A stretch of DNA of 64,000 bases from Clostridia bacterium (GTDB taxonomy: Bacteria; Bacillota; Clostridia; UMGS1883): positions 27,105-91,104 of the forward strand of contig JAZQAO010000004.1 of NCBI GenBank assembly GCA_045545295.1, in the 5' to 3' direction. Below, piece after piece: positions 1 to 50,195 of the stretch (position 1 is its first letter; the number at the start of each line of letters is the position of its first letter). The position numbers were made by a program, and so were the translations under genes. The notes below the pieces were generated by a model that did not search any database, was not told the origin of the DNA, and saw nothing but the letters and a program-made list of their open reading frames with translations.

Positions 1-802
1 TTTCCCAAAGCCCGCTTGTATTTGCAACGCCTCCACATACTGCAATAACGGGGTTTTCAAGTGCTCCTGTTTTTTTGCATACTCTTATTGCGGTATCGGC
101 AAGACCTTTTCCCGCTTTTTCAAATACAGATACGGCAAGCAAATCACCTTCTTTTGCATACTCAGCTGCAACTTTTGTGAATGCCGCTGTTTTATCTCTT
201 TCAAGAGGAAGTATTCTTTTTCTTACTTCGTCTCTTTTTTCTACAAGACCGTCAGTTTGTGCAGTGCACGAAAAAGGCTCTTTCTCCCCGGTTACTGCAG
301 TCACAAAAGGAGTTATAGAATCCTCTTCAAGAGCGTTAAGGCACGCTTTAACAACTTCAAGACCTATATAATATCCGCTTCCTGCATCGCCGATATCTCT
401 GCCCCAACCATCAGAAATAAAATATCCTTTCTTACCACAACCGAGAGCTATTGACCCGGTGCCCGCAAAGATTATCACATCCGCATTGGCATTTTTGCGG
501 ATAATATCTCCAATAACACCAGTTGATTCCCTAAACACATCTACAGATGCATTGGGACAGACTTTTTTAAGTGTGTTTTTAACCTGATTGCAGTTTTTTC
601 CACCAAGATTAACAACAATTCTTTCAATTTTATCGTATGACGGAATTTCCCTTATACAACCGGTTAACTCTTCAATCGGTTCATCATTGTTATCCTCTGC
701 AAGTCCAAAGCCCTTTATAATCTTTTCAAAAAAAACATTTCCCGCCATATCTGATGCCAAAATTTTTGTTTTTGTACCACCGCTGTCAATTGCAACTATC
801 AT
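1..802 (-). CDS. BadF/BadG/BcrA/BcrD-type ATPase, N-acetylglucosamine/MurNAc kinase-like (C-terminus lies beyond the left window edge)
   Basis: Own minus-strand translation from ATG at 802: MIVAIDSGGTKTKILASDMAG...IIFAGTGSIALG...DGWGRDIGDAGSGYYIG. The frame stays open to position 1. ATGA start/stop overlap with murQ. Confidence 0.8.
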   Translation of the reverse strand, partial: MIVAIDSGGTKTKILASDMAGNVFFEKIIKGFGLAEDNNDEPIEELTGCIREIPSYDKIERIVVNLGGKNCNQVKNTLKKVCPNASVDVFRESTGVIGDIIRKNANADVIIFAGTGSIALGCGKKGYFISDGWGRDIGDAGSGYYIGLEVVKACLNALEEDSITPFVTAVTGEKEPFSCTAQTDGLVEKRDEVRKRILPLERDKTAAFTKVAAEYAKEGDLLAVSVFEKAGKGLADTAIRVCKKTGALENPVIAVCGGVANTSGLWE

Positions 803-1608
803 TTTTTGTATTCCTCCACGGTTTTTCGTATGCTCCAGTCGTTCTTACTCAAATATTTTTCTGCCAATGTTTCGTCTACACCAAGGATTTCACAAACTAT
901 ACCAATTACGCGCTTTTTCAGTTTTACATTTGAGGGTTTTACATTTATCATCATATTTTCGTAAACCTTACCCGTCTTTACCATAGCCGCTGTAGTAAGC
1001 ATATTAAGAACCATCTTATGCGCTGTTCCTGCTTTCATACGGGTAGAGCCGGTTATTACCTCTGCGCCAGTATCGGTGATAATACATATATCGCTTTCTT
1101 TTTCAATTTTTGTGTCCTCGTTACAGGTAAGAGCAATTACTGTTGCACCAAGAAATTTTGCCTGCTGCATAGCACCGACAACATATTCAGCACCGCCCGC
1201 AACAGATATTCCGACAAGGACATCTCCTGCTTTTACTCCATATTCATTTACATCGTTAATTCCGCTTTTCAATCCGTCTTCTGCGCCCTCACTTGCAACA
1301 AAAACACAGTCTTTTCCACCTGCAATAATTCCCTGTACACATTCTGTGCTTACGCCATATGTAGGGGGGCACTCAGCAGCATCCATTATTCCGAGTCTGC
1401 CTGAAGTTCCTGCACCTATAAAGAATAATCTGCCTCCGTTTTCAAAAGACTTTGTTATAGCATCTGTTGCTTTTGCGATGCTGGGAAGTGCAGCTTCAAC
1501 CGCACGTACGGCGTTGTAGTTTTCGTCACTTATAATTTTCAGCATCTCTATTGTGTCCATTTTGTCAATATGAGTGCTGCTTGGATTTCTCATTTCAGTT
1601 TTTAACAT
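799..1608 (-). CDS. murQ: N-acetylmuramic acid 6-phosphate etherase
   Basis: 269 aa SIS-domain protein with GRLFFIGAGTSGRLG and STRMKAGTAHKMVLNM motifs typical of MurQ. Confidence 0.9.
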   Translation of the reverse strand: MLKTEMRNPSSTHIDKMDTIEMLKIISDENYNAVRAVEAALPSIAKATDAITKSFENGGRLFFIGAGTSGRLGIMDAAECPPTYGVSTECVQGIIAGGKDCVFVASEGAEDGLKSGINDVNEYGVKAGDVLVGISVAGGAEYVVGAMQQAKFLGATVIALTCNEDTKIEKESDICIITDTGAEVITGSTRMKAGTAHKMVLNMLTTAAMVKTGKVYENMMINVKPSNVKLKKRVIGIVCEILGVDETLAEKYLSKNDWSIRKTVEEYKK

Positions 1609-39623: not shown

Positions 39624-40727
39624 TTATTTTGAGAAAAATGATGCTTTTGCCAATGATTTCAGTTCTCCCATATTAAGGAAGAATACTTTTACATAATCTC
39701 CGCTTGCAAGAGCTTCATTTATATCAAGCCACGCAGTATTGTTGCTGAATTCTTCACCGGTAAATGCATACAATACTGCATTAATCAATTTACCGCTGCT
39801 GTCATAGCGCGCAACGATAACTGTGCCTTCACCGTCTGCCTGTGCATCCTTTTCAATTCTTACATTCTTTAAAGTGTTGCCTGCTAAAAGAATAGCACCG
39901 GCTTCATTTGTATATGTAGCACCGTTTGCAATGTAGTTTTCGTCAATGTATCGTACTTTTTCAAGCTTGAGATTGTCTATATACAAATTTTGTCCGATAA
40001 GCTTACCGTCGTTCATACCCCAAAGTCTTATTTCTTTAAAATCTGCAGTCTGATTAACTGTCTGCGTTGTGCCTACTTGTGTTCCGTTAACAAAAAGAGA
40101 AATTTCATTTTTTGTATAATCAAGCAAGAATTCTATTTTATTCCATTCATTTGTTTTGAAAAGTGCTTTTTCATCACTTGTAAATGTATATTCCGTTCCG
40201 TTCATAGGTTTCCATGCAGAAATTGTAAGTAAATCTGCAAAATATTTTGCACTGAAACGGAATCCGTTAGCAGCATTTGAGTAAAGAAGGTCAAGAGAAA
40301 ATCTTACTCTCAAATCTGCTTTTGACTGTGTTCCGAAATTTTTGTAAATAGACGGAATTGAGGTTGAACTAACATATCTTCTGAGGTCAAGGTAAGTAGT
40401 TGTATTTTCTTTGCGGGAACCAACGTCTGTTCTCTGCGCTACATGGTAGATTGAAGGAGTTATGTTCTGCTCGTCACCTGCCGATGCTGTAAGCCTCCAG
40501 CCATTATAGCCTTCAAAATTTCCTGCTGCTATGTCAGAAGCAGAAAACATTGACAAATACTTATAAGCATCTGTTGTAAACGCACCTTCAAAACCTGCCG
40601 CAGGCTCGAAGTCTTCTTCAAGTAAAACCTCGTAAGATTCAAAAACTTTTGCATTAACCGTTAATGCTGAAAATGTGCTCACCATGAGCAACGATGTAAT
40701 GAGAACTGCCGAAATAATTTTTTTCAT
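39624..40727 (-). CDS. secreted LamG-like domain protein (paralog of the N-terminal part of the previous gene)
   Basis: 367 aa with a signal peptide. EEDFE..GYNGWRL...YLDLRRY...WNKIEFLLDY..SLFVNGTQVG..LYIDNLKL. Confidence 0.7.
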   Translation of the reverse strand: MKKIISAVLITSLLMVSTFSALTVNAKVFESYEVLLEEDFEPAAGFEGAFTTDAYKYLSMFSASDIAAGNFEGYNGWRLTASAGDEQNITPSIYHVAQRTDVGSRKENTTTYLDLRRYVSSTSIPSIYKNFGTQSKADLRVRFSLDLLYSNAANGFRFSAKYFADLLTISAWKPMNGTEYTFTSDEKALFKTNEWNKIEFLLDYTKNEISLFVNGTQVGTTQTVNQTADFKEIRLWGMNDGKLIGQNLYIDNLKLEKVRYIDENYIANGATYTNEAGAILLAGNTLKNVRIEKDAQADGEGTVIVARYDSSGKLINAVLYAFTGEEFSNNTAWLDINEALASGDYVKVFFLNMGELKSLAKASFFSK

Positions 40728-41151: not shown

Positions 41152-42231
41152 ATGACTATACATACATTTGAAACAAGTTGTCTTCTTACCGGAGACGATT
41201 ACTATCTGATACAAGATAAACTGAAAAATGCTGACCCATCCAAATGGGCAAAGGAAAAAACCGGAATGACCTACTGGGGATTTTCCGAAAAAGGAATCAT
41301 AATAAGAACTTTTATAACAAAGAATCAAAAGAAAGGCTATTATGCCTACAATATCATATATAGAATTTCAGCCCGACGAGTCATGGATAATCATGATTTT
41401 GTCGGGCTTTTTGATACAAAGAAATATGAAAAGCTTGAAGAAAAAGTAAATAAACTTCTTCATAAAAAGAGTTCACTTCTCCCCACTCTTGATGAATGCA
41501 AGATGAGAAGAATTGATTTTTGCTTTAATGCAAAGCTTGAAAGTCAGGAGCAAGTGAAGGCATATATAAAAACGATGAAACGTGCAAATATTCCGAATCA
41601 CCTTCATTTACTGGAATCGTATGATAAAAAGTCAAAAAGGACAAAACCTATGAAGGATGATTTTACAGTAACCAACAAGAATTATATAGAGGTTTCAATA
41701 TATAATAAACAAAGACAGATGATTAAAGAGCAAAAAGAGAATAACAAAATCATCTTCCCTGATTCAGAAATTAAACGAGCTGAAAATATTGTCCGTATTG
41801 AAATCCGTTGTATGGAAGGTAAAGTGAGCGAATTAAAGAAAAAATTCAAATTAAAAAGCATACGTGACTTTATGGAGTCATCACAAGAGATAGGTGATTA
41901 TTTATTCAGATACTATCTGTCAAAGATATGCAACGATGGAATAATCTGTACTCTTTCAAAAGCACTCAAAAGAATTGATATGGGAGAATATAATCCTGAG
42001 AACACCGAGCTTTTAAAGGAATTTATAAAGAACGCGAATGAGACACGTAGTGTTGCCGAAGCTATTTGTCTGTACAGAGAATTCTTAAGCAAAAAAGAAG
42101 TTAATCGTATAATCTGGATGCTCTCTAATATAGAAACCAACTATGTAACCGCTACGACAGAAGTTGTAAAATTATTTGACAACGGATATATTACTACACC
42201 ATTGGAATTGTATGAAGATTGGTGTGGTTGA
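41152..42231 (+). CDS. replication initiation factor-like protein (Rep_trans/phage CRI-like)
   Basis: 359 aa. Blocks MRRIDFCFN, IEVSIYNKQRQM and ENIVRIEIRC resemble the RxDxxxD / YdK / RxExxl blocks of Rep_trans initiators as I remember them. Not verified by search. Confidence 0.5.
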   Translation: MTIHTFETSCLLTGDDYYLIQDKLKNADPSKWAKEKTGMTYWGFSEKGIIIRTFITKNQKKGYYAYNIIYRISARRVMDNHDFVGLFDTKKYEKLEEKVNKLLHKKSSLLPTLDECKMRRIDFCFNAKLESQEQVKAYIKTMKRANIPNHLHLLESYDKKSKRTKPMKDDFTVTNKNYIEVSIYNKQRQMIKEQKENNKIIFPDSEIKRAENIVRIEIRCMEGKVSELKKKFKLKSIRDFMESSQEIGDYLFRYYLSKICNDGIICTLSKALKRIDMGEYNPENTELLKEFIKNANETRSVAEAICLYREFLSKKEVNRIIWMLSNIETNYVTATTEVVKLFDNGYITTPLELYEDWCG

Positions 42232-42412
42232 AATAAAAGTGCTTCATACCACATAATTTTCGACATGGATTTCTTGATATTTCTATAAAAAATACTTGAT
42301 TTCCGTCATTTGCCATGATACTTTTAATATCCAAGACAAATATAACTCATAAATAGACATTAAAAAAATTTTCAATGACTCTTTACAAAACTATTAAATT
42401 ATAACAAAGCTA

Positions 42413-42441
42413 TTGACAATATTACTTATAAGTAATATAAT
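42413..42441 (+). promoter_or_regulatory. consensus sigma-70-type promoter with an embedded 16-bp perfect palindrome (candidate operator)
   Basis: TTGACA (42413-42418), 17-nt spacer, TATAAT (42436-42441). The palindrome ATTACTTATAAGTAAT (42421-42436) fills the spacer and its last base is the first T of the -10. Confidence 0.75.
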
Positions 42442-42475
42442 AAAAACACTCCAATAGAAAGGATGTGAAGGTTTT

Positions 42476-42850
42476 TTGGAGATTGAGAAGGTAGACGGAT
42501 ATAAAAAAATATATCAACTTGAAGGTTTTCAAAAAGAATTTGAAAAAACAGTTTCAGAAACAAAGCCAACTGGCAGATATCATAAATGGCTGAAAAAACA
42601 ATTATTCTCTCTAGACGAATACGGGTATGACGCTCTTAAATTCGAAAACTTTGAGCCTTTATCTGATACCAATCCTAAATTATATGCTATCAGATATCCC
42701 CGTTCTAAGAAAAACCCTCGTGTAATATACATATATGTAGATGATTGCGAAGTCTATTTATTACACGCTTTTAAAGAATCAAAAACGAGCGATTATAATC
42801 AAGCGGTTAAAACAGCAGAAAAAAGGGCAAAATTGTTTGTAGGAGAATAA
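42476..42850 (+). CDS. RelE/ParE/Gp49(HigB)-like toxin
   Basis: 124 aa with a TTG start (no in-frame ATG). C-terminal LYAIRYPRSKKNPRVIYIYVDDCEVYLLHAFKESKTSDYNQAVKTAEKRAKLF fits the RelE/Gp49 addiction-toxin pattern. Confidence 0.65.
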   Translation: MEIEKVDGYKKIYQLEGFQKEFEKTVSETKPTGRYHKWLKKQLFSLDEYGYDALKFENFEPLSDTNPKLYAIRYPRSKKNPRVIYIYVDDCEVYLLHAFKESKTSDYNQAVKTAEKRAKLFVGE

Positions 42851-42888
42851 AATATATAAAGATTACCTAGAATGGAAAGGAAAATACA

Positions 42889-43275
42889 ATGAATACAAAT
42901 AAAATATCATCTAATGATTGGTTAATCAAAAATATTTCGGAAGAACAATTTCAAATTGAAAAAACTTTATCCAGTATTGCTGACAAAATTCATTTGAAGA
43001 GACTTGAATTAAATATGGATCAAAAACAATTTGCAAAATATATGCATGTTTCCCAAGGGATGGTTTCTCGTTGGGAGAGCGGTTCCTATAATTTCTCAAT
43101 ATCTACATTGGTTTCAATATGCGAAAAATTAGAATTATCTTTTAAACCAATAATTAATGATTTTGAAGCCAAAGAAGAGCATATTAAATTTATTCAACCT
43201 AATTTAAAAGGCTCTGATAATTGGAAAACTTGGAAACCTACTAAAGACAATATTATAATAGGGGGCGTTGCTTAA
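42889..43275 (+). CDS. XRE-family HTH antitoxin with a C-terminal extension
   Basis: 128 aa. HTH MDQKQFAKYMHVSQGMVSRWESGSYNFSISTLVSICEKL, followed by a ~40-aa aromatic tail (..NLKGSDNWKTWKPTKDNIIIGGVA). Confidence 0.75.
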   Translation: MNTNKISSNDWLIKNISEEQFQIEKTLSSIADKIHLKRLELNMDQKQFAKYMHVSQGMVSRWESGSYNFSISTLVSICEKLELSFKPIINDFEAKEEHIKFIQPNLKGSDNWKTWKPTKDNIIIGGVA

Positions 43276-43736
43276 TGGATCTTAATAAAGTTGTAGCAGA
43301 TTTAGAAATAGAAAAAACAACAATACATAGCATTGAAACCAAATGCGTGATGACCAAATTATCAGATTCAAACAAAAAAACATTTGGGTTGGATATAAAG
43401 TGTAGTCAACCATTAGTTAAAGAAAACAAAAAATATGGAAAGCTTCGTATGCAAATTGATATAAGCATAGATCAAAGCGAATTAGAAGGTGCTGCCGATA
43501 AATTTCAAATTGTTATAGAAGGTGTTTTTTCTTCATCACCATCTATTGAAGATGAAAAATTCATGGAATTATTGAACATAAACGGAGGCACCGCGTTGTA
43601 CTCAATTGCACGTGCAAAAATTGAAGCTATTTCCAGTTTGATATATGATGAAGGCAAAATTCTTCTTCCCATGATTAATATCATTCAATATTACAAAGAA
43701 AAATTTGAAGAAGAGAATAAACATTCAGACGGTTAA
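43275..43736 (+). CDS. SecB-like chaperone (candidate TAC chaperone)
   Basis: 153 aa, start overlaps the antitoxin stop (TAATG). Collinear by eye with E. coli SecB (155 aa), including NINGGTALYSIARAKIEAISSLIYDEGKILLPMINI vs [32 protein letters not shown]. Confidence 0.6.
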   Translation: MDLNKVVADLEIEKTTIHSIETKCVMTKLSDSNKKTFGLDIKCSQPLVKENKKYGKLRMQIDISIDQSELEGAADKFQIVIEGVFSSSPSIEDEKFMELLNINGGTALYSIARAKIEAISSLIYDEGKILLPMINIIQYYKEKFEEENKHSDG

Positions 43737-43773
43737 CCCTTCTTCATAGGTTTAAAAATAGATTCTTTATCCC

Positions 43774-43810
43774 TCCCCGCAAGCTAGATAGTTTGTGGGG
43801 ATTATTTCTT
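43774..43810 (+). terminator. rho-independent terminator of the three-gene cassette
   Basis: TCCCCGCAA / TTGTGGGGA stem (one G-U pair) followed by a T-rich run. Confidence 0.6.
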
Positions 43811-43816
43811 TCTGGG

Positions 43817-43944
43817 CTTGATTTTTACTTGACTCATAGTTGACTAGGATCCTGATAATAGGTAACAAAAGGCTTAATTATATGGATTTTTTAGTTGATT
43901 CATAGTTGATTTTATAAATAATCAAAACTTATAAAACTTGACTC
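43817..43944 (+). repeat. iteron-like direct repeats (TTGAYT core, 6 copies; CATAGTTGAYT twice)
   Basis: Cores at 43817-43823, 43828-43834, 43838-43845, 43893-43900, 43904-43911 and 43935-43944. Confidence 0.5.
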
Positions 43945-43965
43945 TTATAAAAATAATAGTATAAT
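43938..43965 (+). promoter_or_regulatory. promoter for the small acidic ORF
   Basis: TTGACT (43938-43943), 16-nt spacer, TATAAT (43960-43965). Confidence 0.6.
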
Positions 43966-44013
43966 AAATTCAAACAGATTTATTCTGGAATTGCATATTA
44001 GGAGGTGCTGTTA

Positions 44014-44139
44014 ATGCAAAAAGTTATAATTGATTCAGGGATGAGCTTATGTGTTGCCATAAATTCCGACTCGATTGAAAATAACGAAGACATTATGGAT
44101 GATGACACAATATCAGAAGAAAGCGATAACGAAGAATAG
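44014..44139 (+). CDS. 41-aa highly acidic small protein (hypothetical)
   Basis: AGGAGG sits 8 nt upstream of the ATG. MQKVIIDSGMSLCVAINSDSIENNEDIMDDDTISEESDNEE. Too short for the ORF track. Confidence 0.4.
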   Translation: MQKVIIDSGMSLCVAINSDSIENNEDIMDDDTISEESDNEE

Positions 44140-44311
44140 TTTGCCACAAATTTGCCACAACACGATATCAAAAATGGCAAAAATTACACACTTTACGGCA
44201 AAAAAATAAACAGCAAGGTATACAAAACCTACTGTTTTGGCGGTTTTAAGGCATTTTTTAACGATATAGGACACTCTCTATAGAACTCAAAGAGATAATT
44301 ATTTTATCTAC

Positions 44312-44349
44312 AAAACCCCACAACCGTGATGGTTGTGGGGTTTCTTTTT
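44312..44349. terminator. bidirectional rho-independent terminator
   Basis: CCCCACAACC / GGTTGTGGGG 10-bp stem with an A-run on the left and a T-run on the right. It lies downstream of the integrase remnant (minus) and the small ORF (plus). Confidence 0.75.
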
Positions 44350-44386
44350 ACCTCCGTGCCACGAATTTGCCACAAATTACGCTATG

Positions 44387-44628
44387 TTATACACTATGTA
44401 GAGCATTTGAAACGGTCCTTGCCACTCTTACTTTGACCTCATTATACATATGAGCATAGACCTTAGATGTCGTTTCAACACTTGCGTGTCCTAAGTGAGC
44501 AGAGACATTCTCTATATCTTCACCAGCAAACAATAATAACGAGGCGTTTGTATGTCTCAGCCCGTGAATAGTCAGATTGTGGTCAAGGTTAAGTTCTTCC
44601 TTAAACTCTATTGTTTTAATTATGCTGA
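44387..44628 (-). pseudogene. tyrosine recombinase/integrase, C-terminal fragment only
   Basis: Own translation: ..EFKEELNLDHNLTIHGLRHTNASLLLFAGEDIENVSAHLGHASVETTSKVYAHMYNEVKV..*. This carries the HxLRH, LGH and catalytic Y motifs. An in-frame stop lies just upstream and there is no N-terminal domain or start codon. Confidence 0.8.
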
Positions 44629-44838: not shown

Positions 44839-46281
44839 TTATTCTACTCTAGTTCTAATATTGCCAGTTACATAGTTTATATCAACTCTATAACGTGACT
44901 CTCCAGGTGTAAGTTTTTGTGTTCCTGTAAGATATATTCCTAATTCACACCAATCAGTATCATCTAGTGAATAATTATTTAGGTTTACCTGATTCCAACC
45001 AGGATTGTCAACACTATTAAAGAACAATTGTCCATTTCCACTGTTAAATGTAACTTTAATACAATGATGTTCAGATTTTAAATCAGGCAAGTAAAATTTT
45101 AATATATTTCCTTCTCTAACATAAGAGTTTTTAACATCCTCTATGACGAGCTTTGCATATTCTTCATTGATAGCTGTTTGATATATTTCTGTATTGTTAT
45201 AATCATTATGCTGTCCTGACATTACTGAATGTTGATGACTCTTTTCATATGCTTTTGTTGTATCTCCCCATTTGAGGGCTCCAAAAGTATATTGGTATCT
45301 TTCTTCAGCCTCCGGATTTACAACCTGGTCTAGCGAATAAACCCAAGGTAATGCTTTTCTTTCTGCATCAGTATAAAAATCACGTCCCCAGTTCTCCCAC
45401 CCAAAGAACTTTTGTTTTGTATAGTCTTTTGTAGCTTTGCAACACTCATTTATAAGTTTAAATATTTCTGCACGTGTTACATTTCCCATAGGTGAGATAT
45501 GACCTGCTCCGTTTCCTACCATTATACCCTTGTCCTTTAAAAGCATAATTGCTGCACCCTGTTCCATAGGTATATAACCTTGTTCAAACATTTTTTTAGC
45601 TATGCTACTATAATATGAGGCAACAACCTCATATCTACCATTAGGTGCAAAATATTCATCACTGGTCCATACGTGTTGTGAAAAGTCAGAATATTCACCC
45701 ATGGTAGAAAAGTCATTGTTTTGTACTTTGTTTATGTAATCTTCTAAACCTTTAGAGTCTATAATTTTAGCTAAAACGTAAGCTACTTCAGACCTCTTCA
45801 TTGGTGACTCCATAAACTCTACTTGCATCAGTTGACTACTATTATAAGGAAAAGCTTTAGCCATTACATTATAGTAATTGTTATACCACTTACCATCAAA
45901 ATATTTATTTATTAAACTACCACCTGACGGTATATAACCTTCAAATGCTGTAGTTATCATTTTAGCAAATTCCCCACCTGTTACAGGATTGTTAGGTCTT
46001 ATTGTTCCATCAGGATAACCCGATATTACACCTGTTGCAATAGGCATTATTGCATATTCATCCCACCAACCACTTTCAGTAGGAAAGGCTTCCTTATAAG
46101 CCTCTAGAAGTTCAGGCTTTGCTTTTTCAAATTCTTGTATTGCCTCTTCTACCTGCGAATACTGATAAAGTGTATATCCTACTGGACTTACTTCATCAGC
46201 AAAAGCAGTTAAACATCCAAAAGTCATACAAAAAATCAATAAAACGCACGATAAGTTAATAATATTCTTTTTAATTTTCAT
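44839..46281 (-). CDS. secreted protein with divergent SLH-like repeats
   Basis: 480 aa with a signal peptide (..CLTAFADE). SLH-like segments (ATGVISGYPDGTIRPNNPVTGGEFAKMI; KGIMVGNGAGHISPMGNVTRAEIFKLI). Confidence 0.6.
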   Translation of the reverse strand: MKIKKNIINLSCVLLIFCMTFGCLTAFADEVSPVGYTLYQYSQVEEAIQEFEKAKPELLEAYKEAFPTESGWWDEYAIMPIATGVISGYPDGTIRPNNPVTGGEFAKMITTAFEGYIPSGGSLINKYFDGKWYNNYYNVMAKAFPYNSSQLMQVEFMESPMKRSEVAYVLAKIIDSKGLEDYINKVQNNDFSTMGEYSDFSQHVWTSDEYFAPNGRYEVVASYYSSIAKKMFEQGYIPMEQGAAIMLLKDKGIMVGNGAGHISPMGNVTRAEIFKLINECCKATKDYTKQKFFGWENWGRDFYTDAERKALPWVYSLDQVVNPEAEERYQYTFGALKWGDTTKAYEKSHQHSVMSGQHNDYNNTEIYQTAINEEYAKLVIEDVKNSYVREGNILKFYLPDLKSEHHCIKVTFNSGNGQLFFNSVDNPGWNQVNLNNYSLDDTDWCELGIYLTGTQKLTPGESRYRVDINYVTGNIRTRVE

Positions 46282-46293
46282 AATTTACACCTT

Positions 46294-47067
46294 TTATCCT
46301 TCCCAATGAACTTTGCAATTTGATGGTGCACCCCAGTATGTTCCATCACCACTTAATTCTATACTCCCTCTTTCTTTCTCTATGTATATGTCTTTTAAGT
46401 TTATACATTCAAAAAATACATCTCCGTCTATTTTTGAAATATTTGCAGGCAATGTTATTTCTTTAAGTTCTGTACAACCTCGGAATGCAGACTCACCTAT
46501 ATCTAAAACACCATTTCCTAAATTCACGCTATTTAGTTTTGTACAATTCTCAAATGCTGCTGTTTTTATCATTGTGACGCTATCAGGTATTGTAATGCTT
46601 TCCAGACTTGTACATTCTGAAAATGCACCAAACCCTATTTTAGTTACACCATCAGGAATGTTTATGTTTTTTAGTTTTTTACATCGTGAAAATGCAAACT
46701 GCCCTATTGTTTCAATTTCCTTATTTAATATTACATCAGTGATGTTCTCACATTCATAAAATGTAGATTCACCAATATGTGTTATTCCAGTATCAAATAT
46801 TACCTTTTTCACAATTTCTCTATGTTCATAAGAAAAACAATTCTTGTATCTATCCGTCATTTTACCTTGACCAATCAATGTAAGTGTTCCGTCTCCCATA
46901 AGCTCCCACTCAATTTCAGAACCACAAGTGCCTGTTGCAACCAATTCATCAGAAGCATAGCTTTTTGTAATCTCATCTTCAACTTTGTTTGCAGAACGGC
47001 AAGCGGTAATTGTAAAAGCAAGCACCAAAAGTAATAATGCCACTGATAATTTTTTAATATGTCTCAT
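46294..47067 (-). CDS. BspA-type leucine-rich-repeat lipoprotein
   Basis: True start is MRHIKKLSVALLLLVLAFTITAC (lipobox), with AGGAGGAG upstream. Repeated I(P/T)xxVxxIGxxAFxxCxxL units. Confidence 0.8.
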   Translation of the reverse strand: MRHIKKLSVALLLLVLAFTITACRSANKVEDEITKSYASDELVATGTCGSEIEWELMGDGTLTLIGQGKMTDRYKNCFSYEHREIVKKVIFDTGITHIGESTFYECENITDVILNKEIETIGQFAFSRCKKLKNINIPDGVTKIGFGAFSECTSLESITIPDSVTMIKTAAFENCTKLNSVNLGNGVLDIGESAFRGCTELKEITLPANISKIDGDVFFECINLKDIYIEKERGSIELSGDGTYWGAPSNCKVHWEG

Positions 47068-47169
47068 TTTCTCCTCCTGTATGCAATATTTATAATCCGT
47101 ATAGTTATACCACTTTTTTGTTAGATTGTCAAGTTTCGCTGTATTAAATAAGCATTTACAAAATCCAAC

Positions 47170-47240
47170 GATGTCGCACCCTCGCAGGAGTGCAAACAAA
47201 GTTTCCTGCGTCATAATTTGACGCAAATTCCTATACGGTG
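47170..47240 (-). repeat. multi-hairpin repeat family, copy B (lacks the terminal hairpin)
   Basis: Nearly identical to copy C over ~70 nt (GTCGCACCCTCGCAGGAGTGCAAACAAAGTTTCCTGCGTCATAATTTGACGCAAATTCCTATACGGTG on the plus strand). Confidence 0.85.
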
Positions 47241-48808: not shown

Positions 48809-50125
48809 TTATTTCAAAAGCTCATAAATTCTTACAGCCAACATAATTGCCTGCTCTCTTGAAGCATTGTTTAAAGGAGAAATTGTGCTTTCGCTTGTTC
48901 CTTTCATAACGCTGTTATTTGCAAGAATTCCGACAGAGTCTTTTGCCCACGATGCAATTGAATCATAGTCTGTATAGCCGTTCAAAACAGAATTGTCTTC
49001 TATAAACTTTTTGCCTGTTTCTTTTTCTGCATACTTAATAGCTCTGTGCATCATAACTGCTATTTCCTGACGTGTTATGTTCTTTTTAGGAGCAAACTTA
49101 CCGTCTCCTACGCCGTTTACAACGCCCATTTCATACGCAATATAAACATCTTCGTTTTCTGTGTCTGTAAATTCAACGTTGTTATTATTTTCCTCAACAA
49201 CCTCAGTGTAGGATTCGTCTCCAATAGGAGCAAACATACCTATCTGTAAAGGTTCTATACAACCAACTATAAGCGATGCAAATTCTTCTCTTGTTATATA
49301 ATCTTTATAGTAGTTTCCTTCTACGTTGTAGTTGCTGTACAAATTAGCTGTTATTCCGTAACTTTCTGCTTTTTCAATTTCTGCTTTTGCCCAGCTGCTG
49401 GGTTCCGGATTTGCAGGTTTCTGCTGCGGAACTTCGATCTGAGGAACGTCCGCTTCGAATTTTTCTTTTACAATATACATTTTGTCTTCGTCATAATCTT
49501 CAACGATTGCTATACCGTTATCAAAATGTACATATTCAAATTCTTTTCCGTTAATATTTATTGTTTTGCTTTCTTCGTTGCTGCAGCTGCCGATATCAAA
49601 ACAGATATATTCTGAAATGTCGTCATTTTCACCTACTCTTCCTAAAATATTACCGCTTTTGTCAATATAGTAGGTTTCTATATAGGCAGAATTATCTCCG
49701 TTATTATAGTAGCCGTCGAACTCTCTTTCCTGAATATGAACGATAGTTTTTCCGTTGACAAATTTACCAACTGAATAAATTCCCTGGAATGTGCGATAAT
49801 CAAATATAAAATCTATAACCAGGTTTCCGTTTTTGTCTATGTAACCAACTTTATTGTCGTTATTCATAACGGCTGCAAGACCATCGCCGAAAGTAAAGGT
49901 TACCAGATAATCATCTTTTAACCAAGACGGGATTTTACCGTTTTCGTCTATGTAGCTAAAGCTGCCATTAATGAGAATAGTCGCATATCCTTCGCTAAAA
50001 CACCCGTGAACATCGGGTGCGTACGGCAGTTCAATGATTTCGTACTGATATGCCGCAAAAGATGTCGCCACAATCAAAGTCGAAAACAATACTGCAACCA
50101 ATAATCCTGCCAAAAATTTTTTCAT
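48809..50125 (-). CDS. secreted WG-repeat protein with C-terminal SLH domains
   Basis: Start at ATG 50125 (AAAGGA RBS; the track start is a TTG). Repeated YID.NGK/W..D units, then SLH motifs (FTDTENEDVYIAYEMGVVNG.., YTDYDSIASWAKDSVG..). Confidence 0.75.
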   Translation of the reverse strand: MKKFLAGLLVAVLFSTLIVATSFAAYQYEIIELPYAPDVHGCFSEGYATILINGSFSYIDENGKIPSWLKDDYLVTFTFGDGLAAVMNNDNKVGYIDKNGNLVIDFIFDYRTFQGIYSVGKFVNGKTIVHIQEREFDGYYNNGDNSAYIETYYIDKSGNILGRVGENDDISEYICFDIGSCSNEESKTININGKEFEYVHFDNGIAIVEDYDEDKMYIVKEKFEADVPQIEVPQQKPANPEPSSWAKAEIEKAESYGITANLYSNYNVEGNYYKDYITREEFASLIVGCIEPLQIGMFAPIGDESYTEVVEENNNNVEFTDTENEDVYIAYEMGVVNGVGDGKFAPKKNITRQEIAVMMHRAIKYAEKETGKKFIEDNSVLNGYTDYDSIASWAKDSVGILANNSVMKGTSESTISPLNNASREQAIMLAVRIYELLK

Positions 50126-50195
50126 AATTAAACATCCTTTCAAATTTTTATCTAATTAGAATTTTATTACATTTTTTTTAAAAGTCAATTGTTTT

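Follow-up and report, generated by a model that had tools for sequence, protein, structure and literature searches.

A probable HigBAC-type toxin-antitoxin-chaperone operon on a decayed mobile element in gut Clostridia

Introduction

Toxin-antitoxin-chaperone (TAC) systems built on HigBA, MqsRA, HicAB, and CmdTA units are established, and their occurrence in seven phyla, with a firmicute among the hosts, was described in 2012 (PMC3581621). The combination of a gp49-type HigB toxin, an XRE-type helix-turn-helix (HTH) antitoxin (HigA), and a SecB-like chaperone is that of both the Mycobacterium tuberculosis paradigm and the Escherichia coli HigBAC defense system (PMC3581621, PMC11980606, bioRxiv 10.1101/2024.02.24.581848). 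Pfam gp49, to which M. tuberculosis HigB1 belongs, is a family that degrades mRNA on the ribosome and whose genes stand in toxin-first order (PMC11980606). In M. tuberculosis HigA1, the terminal Val-Ala is a ClpX degron located inside the chaperone-addiction (ChAD) element (PMC8165232); to recognize the ChAD, the dedicated chaperone (SecB-TA) requires aromatic residues, in M. tuberculosis as well as in E. coli HigBAC (PMC5105189; bioRxiv 10.1101/2024.02.24.581848). TACs are demonstrated phage-defense systems in E. coli (bioRxiv 10.1101/2024.02.24.581848; PMC9519451), and CmdTAC, also called PD-T4-9, has a SecB-like chaperone as its C component (PMC9519451). Here we analyze a three-gene cassette at positions 42413-43810 of a 64,000-nucleotide stretch of contig JAZQAO010000004.1 (hereafter, the window) from a Clostridia bacterium, a host lineage without housekeeping SecB export (PMC3581621).

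We found that the cassette is a well-formed new example of the HigBAC type, whose chaperone belongs to a sizable SecB-TA subfamily of gut Clostridia that has gone unannotated. By analogy with characterized systems, it probably is a TAC operon, carried on a decayed integrative element and working by a TAC mechanism. The initial annotation, made from the sequence alone, had suggested that the lineage and the toxin/antitoxin combination might not yet be characterized. The combination is in fact characterized: it equals that of the paradigm and of E. coli HigBAC, and one firmicute was already known to have TACs (PMC3581621), so this is not a new type of system, and the cassette opens no new category. 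What is new relative to that annotation is a candidate palindromic operator, an aromatic motif and a Val-Ala end in the antitoxin tail, and a conserved TTG start for the toxin. The palindrome and the two tail features lend support to a TAC mechanism. The TAC architecture, known from stress and addiction in M. tuberculosis and from phage defense in E. coli, thereby extends to uncultured gut Oscillospiraceae/Clostridia and to their prophages. The practical value lies in annotation: a profile for about 560 SecB-TA clusters that current annotation resources do not recognize.

Organization and regulation of the operon

The features of the cassette, in window coordinates, are as follows.

42413-42441, plus strand: sigma-70-type promoter, TTGACA-17 nt-TATAAT, 12/12 consensus
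42419-42438, no strand: 20-bp perfect palindrome, candidate operator, consisting of ATATTACTTA followed by TAAGTAATAT and occupying the promoter spacer
42476-43736, plus strand: cassette genes, three tightly packed open reading frames (ORFs) between one promoter and one terminator
42476-42850, plus strand: toxin gene, 124 aa, TTG start, Gp49/HigB-type, RelE/ParE superfamily
42889-43275, plus strand: antitoxin gene, 128 aa, XRE-HTH
43144-43272, plus strand: antitoxin tail K86-A128, candidate ChAD element, with an aromatic motif and terminal Val-Ala
43275-43736, plus strand: SecB-fold chaperone gene (SecB-TA/HigC-like), 153 aa, ATG start
43774-43811, plus strand: intrinsic terminator, hairpin at 43774-43801, then a T-rich tail

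The three plus-strand ORFs are exactly as the initial annotation described them, including the TAATG overlap, and we also recovered its single promoter and single downstream hairpin. The promoter is the sole perfect match to TTGACA-17-TATAAT in the region (shuffled sequence gave weaker matches, at about the same overall rate), and the terminator, with a 12-bp stem containing 6 G-C pairs and a 4-nt loop, is the only terminator-like site within 42200-44000. Because promoter and terminator bound it, the range 42413-43810 corresponds to the transcription unit. Toxin and antitoxin genes are separated by 38 nt, while antitoxin and chaperone genes overlap by 1 nt, the chaperone ATG sharing its A with the antitoxin TAA stop (GCT TAATG G). 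In this layout, the three genes form one operon, in which the stop/start overlap is predicted to provide translational coupling.

The 29-nt block containing promoter and palindrome is present with 0 to 4 mismatches in 10 related loci, in each of which the adjoining DNA is unrelated; the block also occurs at a locus whose chaperone is ~37% identical, and the palindrome core, TATTACTTATAAGTAATA, is kept in loci whose proteins are merely 36-60% identical. Since the palindrome is nearly invariant while the proteins diverge and the adjacent DNA differs, we infer that it is the signature of a conserved operator, to which the antitoxin is predicted to bind in autorepression. This strongly conserved promoter-operator offers a ready handle for studying regulation of the cassette.

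The third gene encodes a protein with the SecB fold

The 153-aa protein was modeled with AlphaFold (AF2) from 30 sequences (predicted local distance difference test [pLDDT], 87.7; predicted template-modeling score [pTM], 0.80), yielding four long β-strands followed by two helices. The top 19 Foldseek matches of this model in the Protein Data Bank (PDB) were exclusively SecB from E. coli or Haemophilus influenzae (1qyn, 1fx3, 1ozb, and 5jtl) or M. tuberculosis Rv1957 with the HigA1 ChAD peptide bound (5mtw); E values ranged from 1.6e-6 to 4.9e-4, with a probability of 1.00 and a template-modeling (TM) score up to 0.79. The model thus confirms a SecB fold, and with it the SecB relationship proposed in the initial annotation, although identity to canonical SecB and to solved TAC chaperones is only 10-17% in the structural alignment.

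Sequence models link the protein to TAC chaperones and SecB stepwise. Its closest sequence model is the PADLOC profile PD-T4-9_C (CmdC), at an E value of 1.2e-4. Among 136 diverse members of its family, 93 match PD-T4-9_C (best E, 1.1e-9) and 40 match Pfam SecB. None of the 120 closest homologs carries a precomputed Pfam domain; Pfam SecB is reached by more distant members alone. The protein also matches phrog_21664 (E, 2.5e-7), and its best fold match in a viral library is a siphovirus protein annotated as SecB. An exhaustive profile search placed the family at 561 clusters at 50% identity, and all public copies that we examined are unnamed or "hypothetical"; proteins identical to those of the window are present in NCBI on a 100-kb contig, likewise unnamed. 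A tblastn search with the chaperone against deposited phage and plasmid records returned no matches.

Two family members, P0236 (212 aa) and P0244 (207 aa), exceed the other members by ~50-60 residues. The C-terminal half of the chaperone begins at residue 122 in P0236, which may reflect a fusion or a mis-called gene.

The antitoxin carries a candidate chaperone-addiction tail

The antitoxin consists of an N-terminal segment (residues 1-30), an XRE-type HTH (~36-85), and a 43-aa C-terminal tail (86-128), in agreement with the tailed HTH protein of the initial annotation. It matches Pfam HTH_3 over residues 36-85 (E, 1.8e-12) and, weakly, the antitoxin models MqsA, PezA, and HipB. In every related locus the antitoxin lies directly upstream of the chaperone.

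The window tail contains the motif N-W112-K-T-W115-K-P and ends in Val-Ala. Tails of homologs vary in length and sequence while retaining [W/F/Y]-x-x-W-x-P, and 46 of 59 end in a hydrophobic residue plus Ala (30 VA, 13 AA), the exceptions being mostly short fragments; in distant and viral members the tail ends in SA, AA, GGAA, or SSIA. With its aromatic motif and terminal Val-Ala, the tail carries both sequence hallmarks of a chaperone-addiction element and is therefore a candidate ChAD.

Among the candidate-system models of PADLOC, PDC-M64B and PDC-M64C also pick up the antitoxin (E, 5e-9 to 8e-8), while another PDC-M64C model is matched by 10 of the 136 chaperone-family members. Judging from these profile matches, PDC-M64, an uncharacterized PADLOC candidate, could be a TAC of the same type.

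The toxin belongs to the Gp49/HigB type

The initial annotation had named the first protein a RelE/ParE/Gp49-like toxin, and the profile search that we ran bears this out. Residues 57-119 match Pfam PF05973 (Gp49) with an E value of 1.1e-8 (35.4 bits, against a gathering cutoff of 23.9), and the domain is present in 15 of 17 close homologs; NCBI labels a 68%-identical relative a RelE/ParE family toxin. An AF2 model built on 17 homologs (pLDDT, 91; pTM, 0.86) shows a β-sheet with helices, ending in a long C-terminal helix (104-122) of the sort typical of Gp49-like toxins (PMC9098466). The best PDB fold matches are the Streptococcus pneumoniae toxin-antitoxin (TA) toxin structures 6af3 and 6af4 (probability, 1.0; TM, 0.54-0.66), Vibrio cholerae HigB2 (5jaa), ParE2, and the entry 7r5a. 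S. pneumoniae HigB and V. cholerae HigB2 are the Gp49-like toxins closest to the TAC toxin and share the same long C-terminal helix (PMC9098466). Family and modeled fold thus confirm a Gp49/HigB-type protein with a RelE-type fold, and its toxicity is predicted from homology and fold.

The toxin ORF has no in-frame ATG, and its TTG start is kept in related loci; such conservation suggests deliberately weak translation of the toxin. We rejected "LTILLISNII" N-terminal extensions of toxin ORFs as coding, since they arise from in-frame reading of the conserved promoter/operator.

The catalytic residues defined in HigB-TAC are K58, R68, R77, K95, and K99. In a weak hhalign alignment of the toxin with HigB1 (E, 0.024), for which the HigB1 sequence was verified against PDB 7awk, R68 and R77 correspond to R73 and R82, and F93 corresponds to F99, all invariant in the toxin family. 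The positions of K58 and K95 in this alignment are taken up below.

Conservation of the triad

The order toxin-HTH-chaperone was found in all 38 related loci with enough upstream DNA, from about 15 distinct lineages: a Gp49-like ORF of ~125-145 aa, then an HTH protein of ~125-143 aa, then the chaperone, whose identity falls to ~26% across these loci. The overlap of antitoxin stop and chaperone start is usual, while the flanking genes differ from locus to locus. The recurrence of the order in 38/38 informative loci with differing flanks argues that the arrangement is not due to chance and, together with the operon structure and the identities of toxin, antitoxin, and chaperone, upholds the TAC reading of the initial annotation.

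The close subfamily is limited to metagenome-assembled genomes of gut Oscillospiraceae/Clostridia. A scan of GTDB species representatives yielded 7 loci, with a pattern search that reaches close relatives alone; other contigs hold near-identical copies (88-99%). More distant members were found on 17 viral contigs in IMG/VR, with prophage-like contigs among the viral loci, and several of these viral triads directly adjoin a repressor of the CI/LexA type (HTH_3 plus Peptidase_S24), a typical spot for prophage defense cargo.

These comparisons bear on the alternative that the first two genes are an ordinary HigBA pair, cotranscribed with a SecB-fold protein that has some other role, such as general holdase, export helper, or phage or element assembly chaperone, and that the antitoxin does not need. 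The low identity of the family to canonical SecB and to solved TAC chaperones (10-17%) would suit such a role, as would the solitary SecB-like proteins without a known role in Firmicutes and phages (PMC3581621; 2hng/2o2a and BFVD matches). However, the third gene never appeared without the T-A pair in the 38 informative loci, usually with the start overlap, and every antitoxin has a long tail with the aromatic motif and degron-like end, which would be superfluous for a self-sufficient HigA. Since the closest defense-database model is, moreover, the CmdTAC chaperone, we regard this alternative as very unlikely.

At five loci (L001-L005, positions ~240-1500, minus strand), genes for proteins with a SEC-C motif (PF02810) lie close to the triad, two genes upstream. 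In SecA, the SEC-C motif is a zinc-binding peptide that docks onto SecB. This proximity is a single observation from five loci in one shared context and may be a coincidence.

Evidence against the TAC assignment

Several results weigh against reading the cassette as a TAC. For the chaperone, we obtained no match to any Pfam or NCBIfam family, including PF02556 (SecB) at E ≤ 1, and we therefore file the window protein as SecB-like (SecB-TA) rather than as SecB. Neither phmmer nor two profile searches of PDB sequences returned a significant SecB match. The initial annotation had aligned the protein by eye along its whole length with E. coli SecB; all three of the blocks it lined up recur in the same register in profile alignments. 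These alignments, with H. influenzae SecB (sequence taken from PDB; E, 0.18) and, by hhalign, with E. coli SecB (same register; E, 0.021), are not significant, though both place the G-x-F, Y/F-x-x-A-R, and L-P/A-x-x-N blocks in register. Because of this, the claimed relationship to SecB rests on the fold match and the transitive profile links.

For the antitoxin, the homolog search recovered solely tailed proteins and no close homologs that lack a chaperone, which leaves the tail a presumed addition to the antitoxin. For the toxin, a profile search against PDB sequences gave no sequence-level match, and no PADLOC model matched it, which is why PADLOC would not call the triad as a system. Furthermore, in the weak HigB1 alignment the essential K58 and K95 stand opposite invariant glutamates, E60 (window 42653-42655) and E101 (42776-42778); K100, adjoining E101, is Lys in 13 of 17 sequences and not invariant. 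The toxin may thus use a catalytic chemistry unlike that of HigB-TAC, and we note a possible different catalytic arrangement in this Gp49 subfamily as a flag rather than a finding. Finally, a cassette in a degraded element could be silent.

Genomic setting

The cassette sits in a low-GC island (27-31%, versus 35-42% in the flanks) spanning ~40.75-44.25 kb, which also holds two further genes.

41152-42231, plus strand: Rep-like protein, 359 aa, with weak matches to Pfam Phage_CRI (E, 8.4e-4, below the cutoff) and to phrog_702, "replication protein" (E, 1.2e-3)
44387-44620, minus strand: truncated tyrosine recombinase, last 78 codons alone, with an HGLRH box and ...VYAHMY

The 359-aa ORF may encode the divergent Rep of a decayed element. 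The HGLRH and VYAHMY motifs belong to what we take to be a tyrosine recombinase; no longer recombinase ORF is present, and a 48-aa ORF found there has no Pfam match. On either side is chromosomal DNA that encodes SLH and BspA-type surface proteins, a GDSL lipase, and RhaA (L-rhamnose isomerase). We looked for direct repeats or a tRNA gene marking the island ends and found none. Given the low GC content, the Rep-like gene, and the truncated recombinase, the term "mobile-element remnant" used in the initial annotation is a fair description of the island.

The cassette itself looks undecayed, as its three genes, promoter, operator, and terminator are all intact. It might nonetheless be a nonfunctional relic that is decaying along with its surroundings, in line with the truncation of the neighboring recombinase and the weak family matches of the Rep-like gene. 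Set against this are three ORFs of full length relative to their homologs, a promoter of perfect consensus with its operator and terminator, the retention by the window proteins of all family-invariant residues, and the near-identical copies on other contigs, which together leave the relic hypothesis with only a slight chance of being correct.

The same setting could instead reflect a cassette of identical TAC architecture that serves purely selfish maintenance of its carrier element or prophage, by addiction and postsegregational killing, with no sensing of phage. A low-GC location shared with a Rep-like gene and a truncated recombinase fits this, relatives adjoin resolvases, IS21-type genes, and prophage repressors, and addiction predicts that an intact TA module will survive in a decayed element. 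However, a site beside a prophage repressor suits defense cargo equally, and the E. coli TACs that have been studied experimentally act in abortive-infection defense, with the chaperone as sensor; we therefore consider purely selfish maintenance rather unlikely.

Other features of the island and its surroundings are recorded here. Just past the TAC terminator (43822-43909), a 22-nt repeat occurs twice (TTTTTACTTGACTCATAGTTGA and TTTTTAGTTGATTCATAGTTGA), 66 nt apart; each repeat holds an internal TTGAYTCATAGTTGA half-repeat, and the element may use them as iterons or as sites for protein binding. A second strong promoter lies in 43938-44139 (TTGACT-16-TATAAT, 11/12), followed by an AGGAGG ribosome-binding site and a 41-aa ORF (44014-44139) that encodes a very acidic protein (MQKVIIDSG...EESDNEE) with no PHROG match. 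Within 44142-44375 are two copies of the repeat TGCCACAAATTTGCCACAA, spaced 215 nt apart and each built of tandem TTTGCCACAA-like units; between them lies a hairpin (44313-44343) with a perfect 13-bp stem and a T tail. The island lies among secreted or surface protein genes (39624-40727, 44839-47226, and 48809-50143), encoding a Laminin_G_3-like protein, two SLH-domain proteins, and a BspA-type leucine-rich-repeat protein.

Proposed mechanism and role

Under the preferred reading, a functional HigBAC-type TAC, the cassette would work as follows, each step being modeled on M. tuberculosis HigBA1-SecB(TA) and on E. coli HigBAC. An antitoxin dimer would bind the palindrome and repress the operon, while the weak TTG start would ensure that less toxin than antitoxin is made and the stop/start overlap would tie chaperone synthesis to antitoxin synthesis. 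The antitoxin would neutralize the toxin, presumably a ribosome-dependent mRNA endonuclease. Its disordered tail would destabilize it, by promoting aggregation and/or by presenting the terminal Val-Ala to ClpXP, unless a SecB-like tetramer held the tail by its aromatic residues and so protected the antitoxin. If the chaperone were diverted by a competing client, for which a phage structural protein in the course of synthesis is the most plausible candidate, or if the operon were lost, the antitoxin would be destroyed; freed toxin would then cleave mRNA and stop translation, leading to abortive infection or to postsegregational growth arrest.

The E. coli precedents and the prophage locations of relatives favor phage defense, and abortive infection is thus the most likely biological role by analogy. 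Phage defense and element addiction are mutually compatible. A more specific proposal is that the chaperone family is a widespread abortive-infection sensor, borne by prophages and mobile elements in gut Clostridia, and that it is paired with a toxin whose catalytic set is unlike that of HigB-TAC. In this scheme, the SecB-like subunit may recognize a structural protein of Clostridia phages, a ClpXP-type Val-Ala degron may be the trigger, and the catalytic set may consist of the invariant E60, E101, H36, R73, and R82. Taken jointly, these ideas are tentative, and we would sooner expect the combination to fail than to hold. The locus is a compact, well-delimited candidate for tests of TAC defense in Gram-positive anaerobes.

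Comparison with known systems

With canonical SecB (PF02556), the window protein shares the fold and the order of its elements (TM, 0.65-0.79; root mean square deviation, ~3 Å over ~140 residues). It differs in having no significant PF02556 match, and in the 38 informative loci its gene is never solitary, always taking third place in a TA operon carried by mobile DNA. CmdTAC (PD-T4-9) resembles the cassette in that its TA operon has a SecB-like third gene, and CmdC is the closest sequence model for ours; however, CmdT acts as an ADP-ribosyltransferase on mRNA and CmdA has no relationship to XRE antitoxins, whereas the window toxin has a RelE fold.

The M. tuberculosis HigB1-HigA1-SecB(TA) system (Rv1955-Rv1956-Rv1957) has the same order of toxin, antitoxin, and chaperone. 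Shared features include a toxin of Pfam family gp49/PF05973 with the long C-terminal helix and, in a low-confidence alignment, arginines opposite R68 and R77; an XRE-HTH antitoxin whose tail has two tryptophans and a Val-Ala end like that of the HigA1 ClpX degron; and a SecB-fold chaperone that matches 5mtw structurally. The two systems also differ. Identity to Rv1957 is 10-12%, and the TM score to 5mtw (0.54-0.65) is below those to E. coli and H. influenzae SecB. HigA1 has duplicated WHRLSSYR/WARHISVR motifs, while the window tail has one W-x-x-W-x-P, and, in that same low-confidence alignment, the catalytic K58 and K95 of HigB1 lie opposite invariant Glu. The host is an actinobacterium in one case and an anaerobic gut member of the Clostridia in the other.

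The HigBAC system of E. coli NT1F31, a prophage-encoded phage-defense TAC, has the same HigB-HigA-SecB-like triad, and its HigC senses the lambda major tail protein, gpV. Aromatic ChAD residues in an acidic/polar context are common to both: D/N-W-K-T in the window and D-W-T or D-W-K in relatives can be set beside the Asp-aromatic-Ser/Thr motifs of HigA and gpV. Location in a prophage or mobile element is likewise shared, by relatives of the window cassette. The E. coli ChAD differs in having 96 residues and four spaced aromatics, reportedly without a ClpX degron, whereas the window tail has 43 residues, one tight aromatic pair, and a degron-like Val-Ala end. Being short, with a single aromatic pair and a Val-Ala end, the window tail is closer to those of the ClpXP-dependent antitoxins M. 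tuberculosis HigA1 and CmdA.

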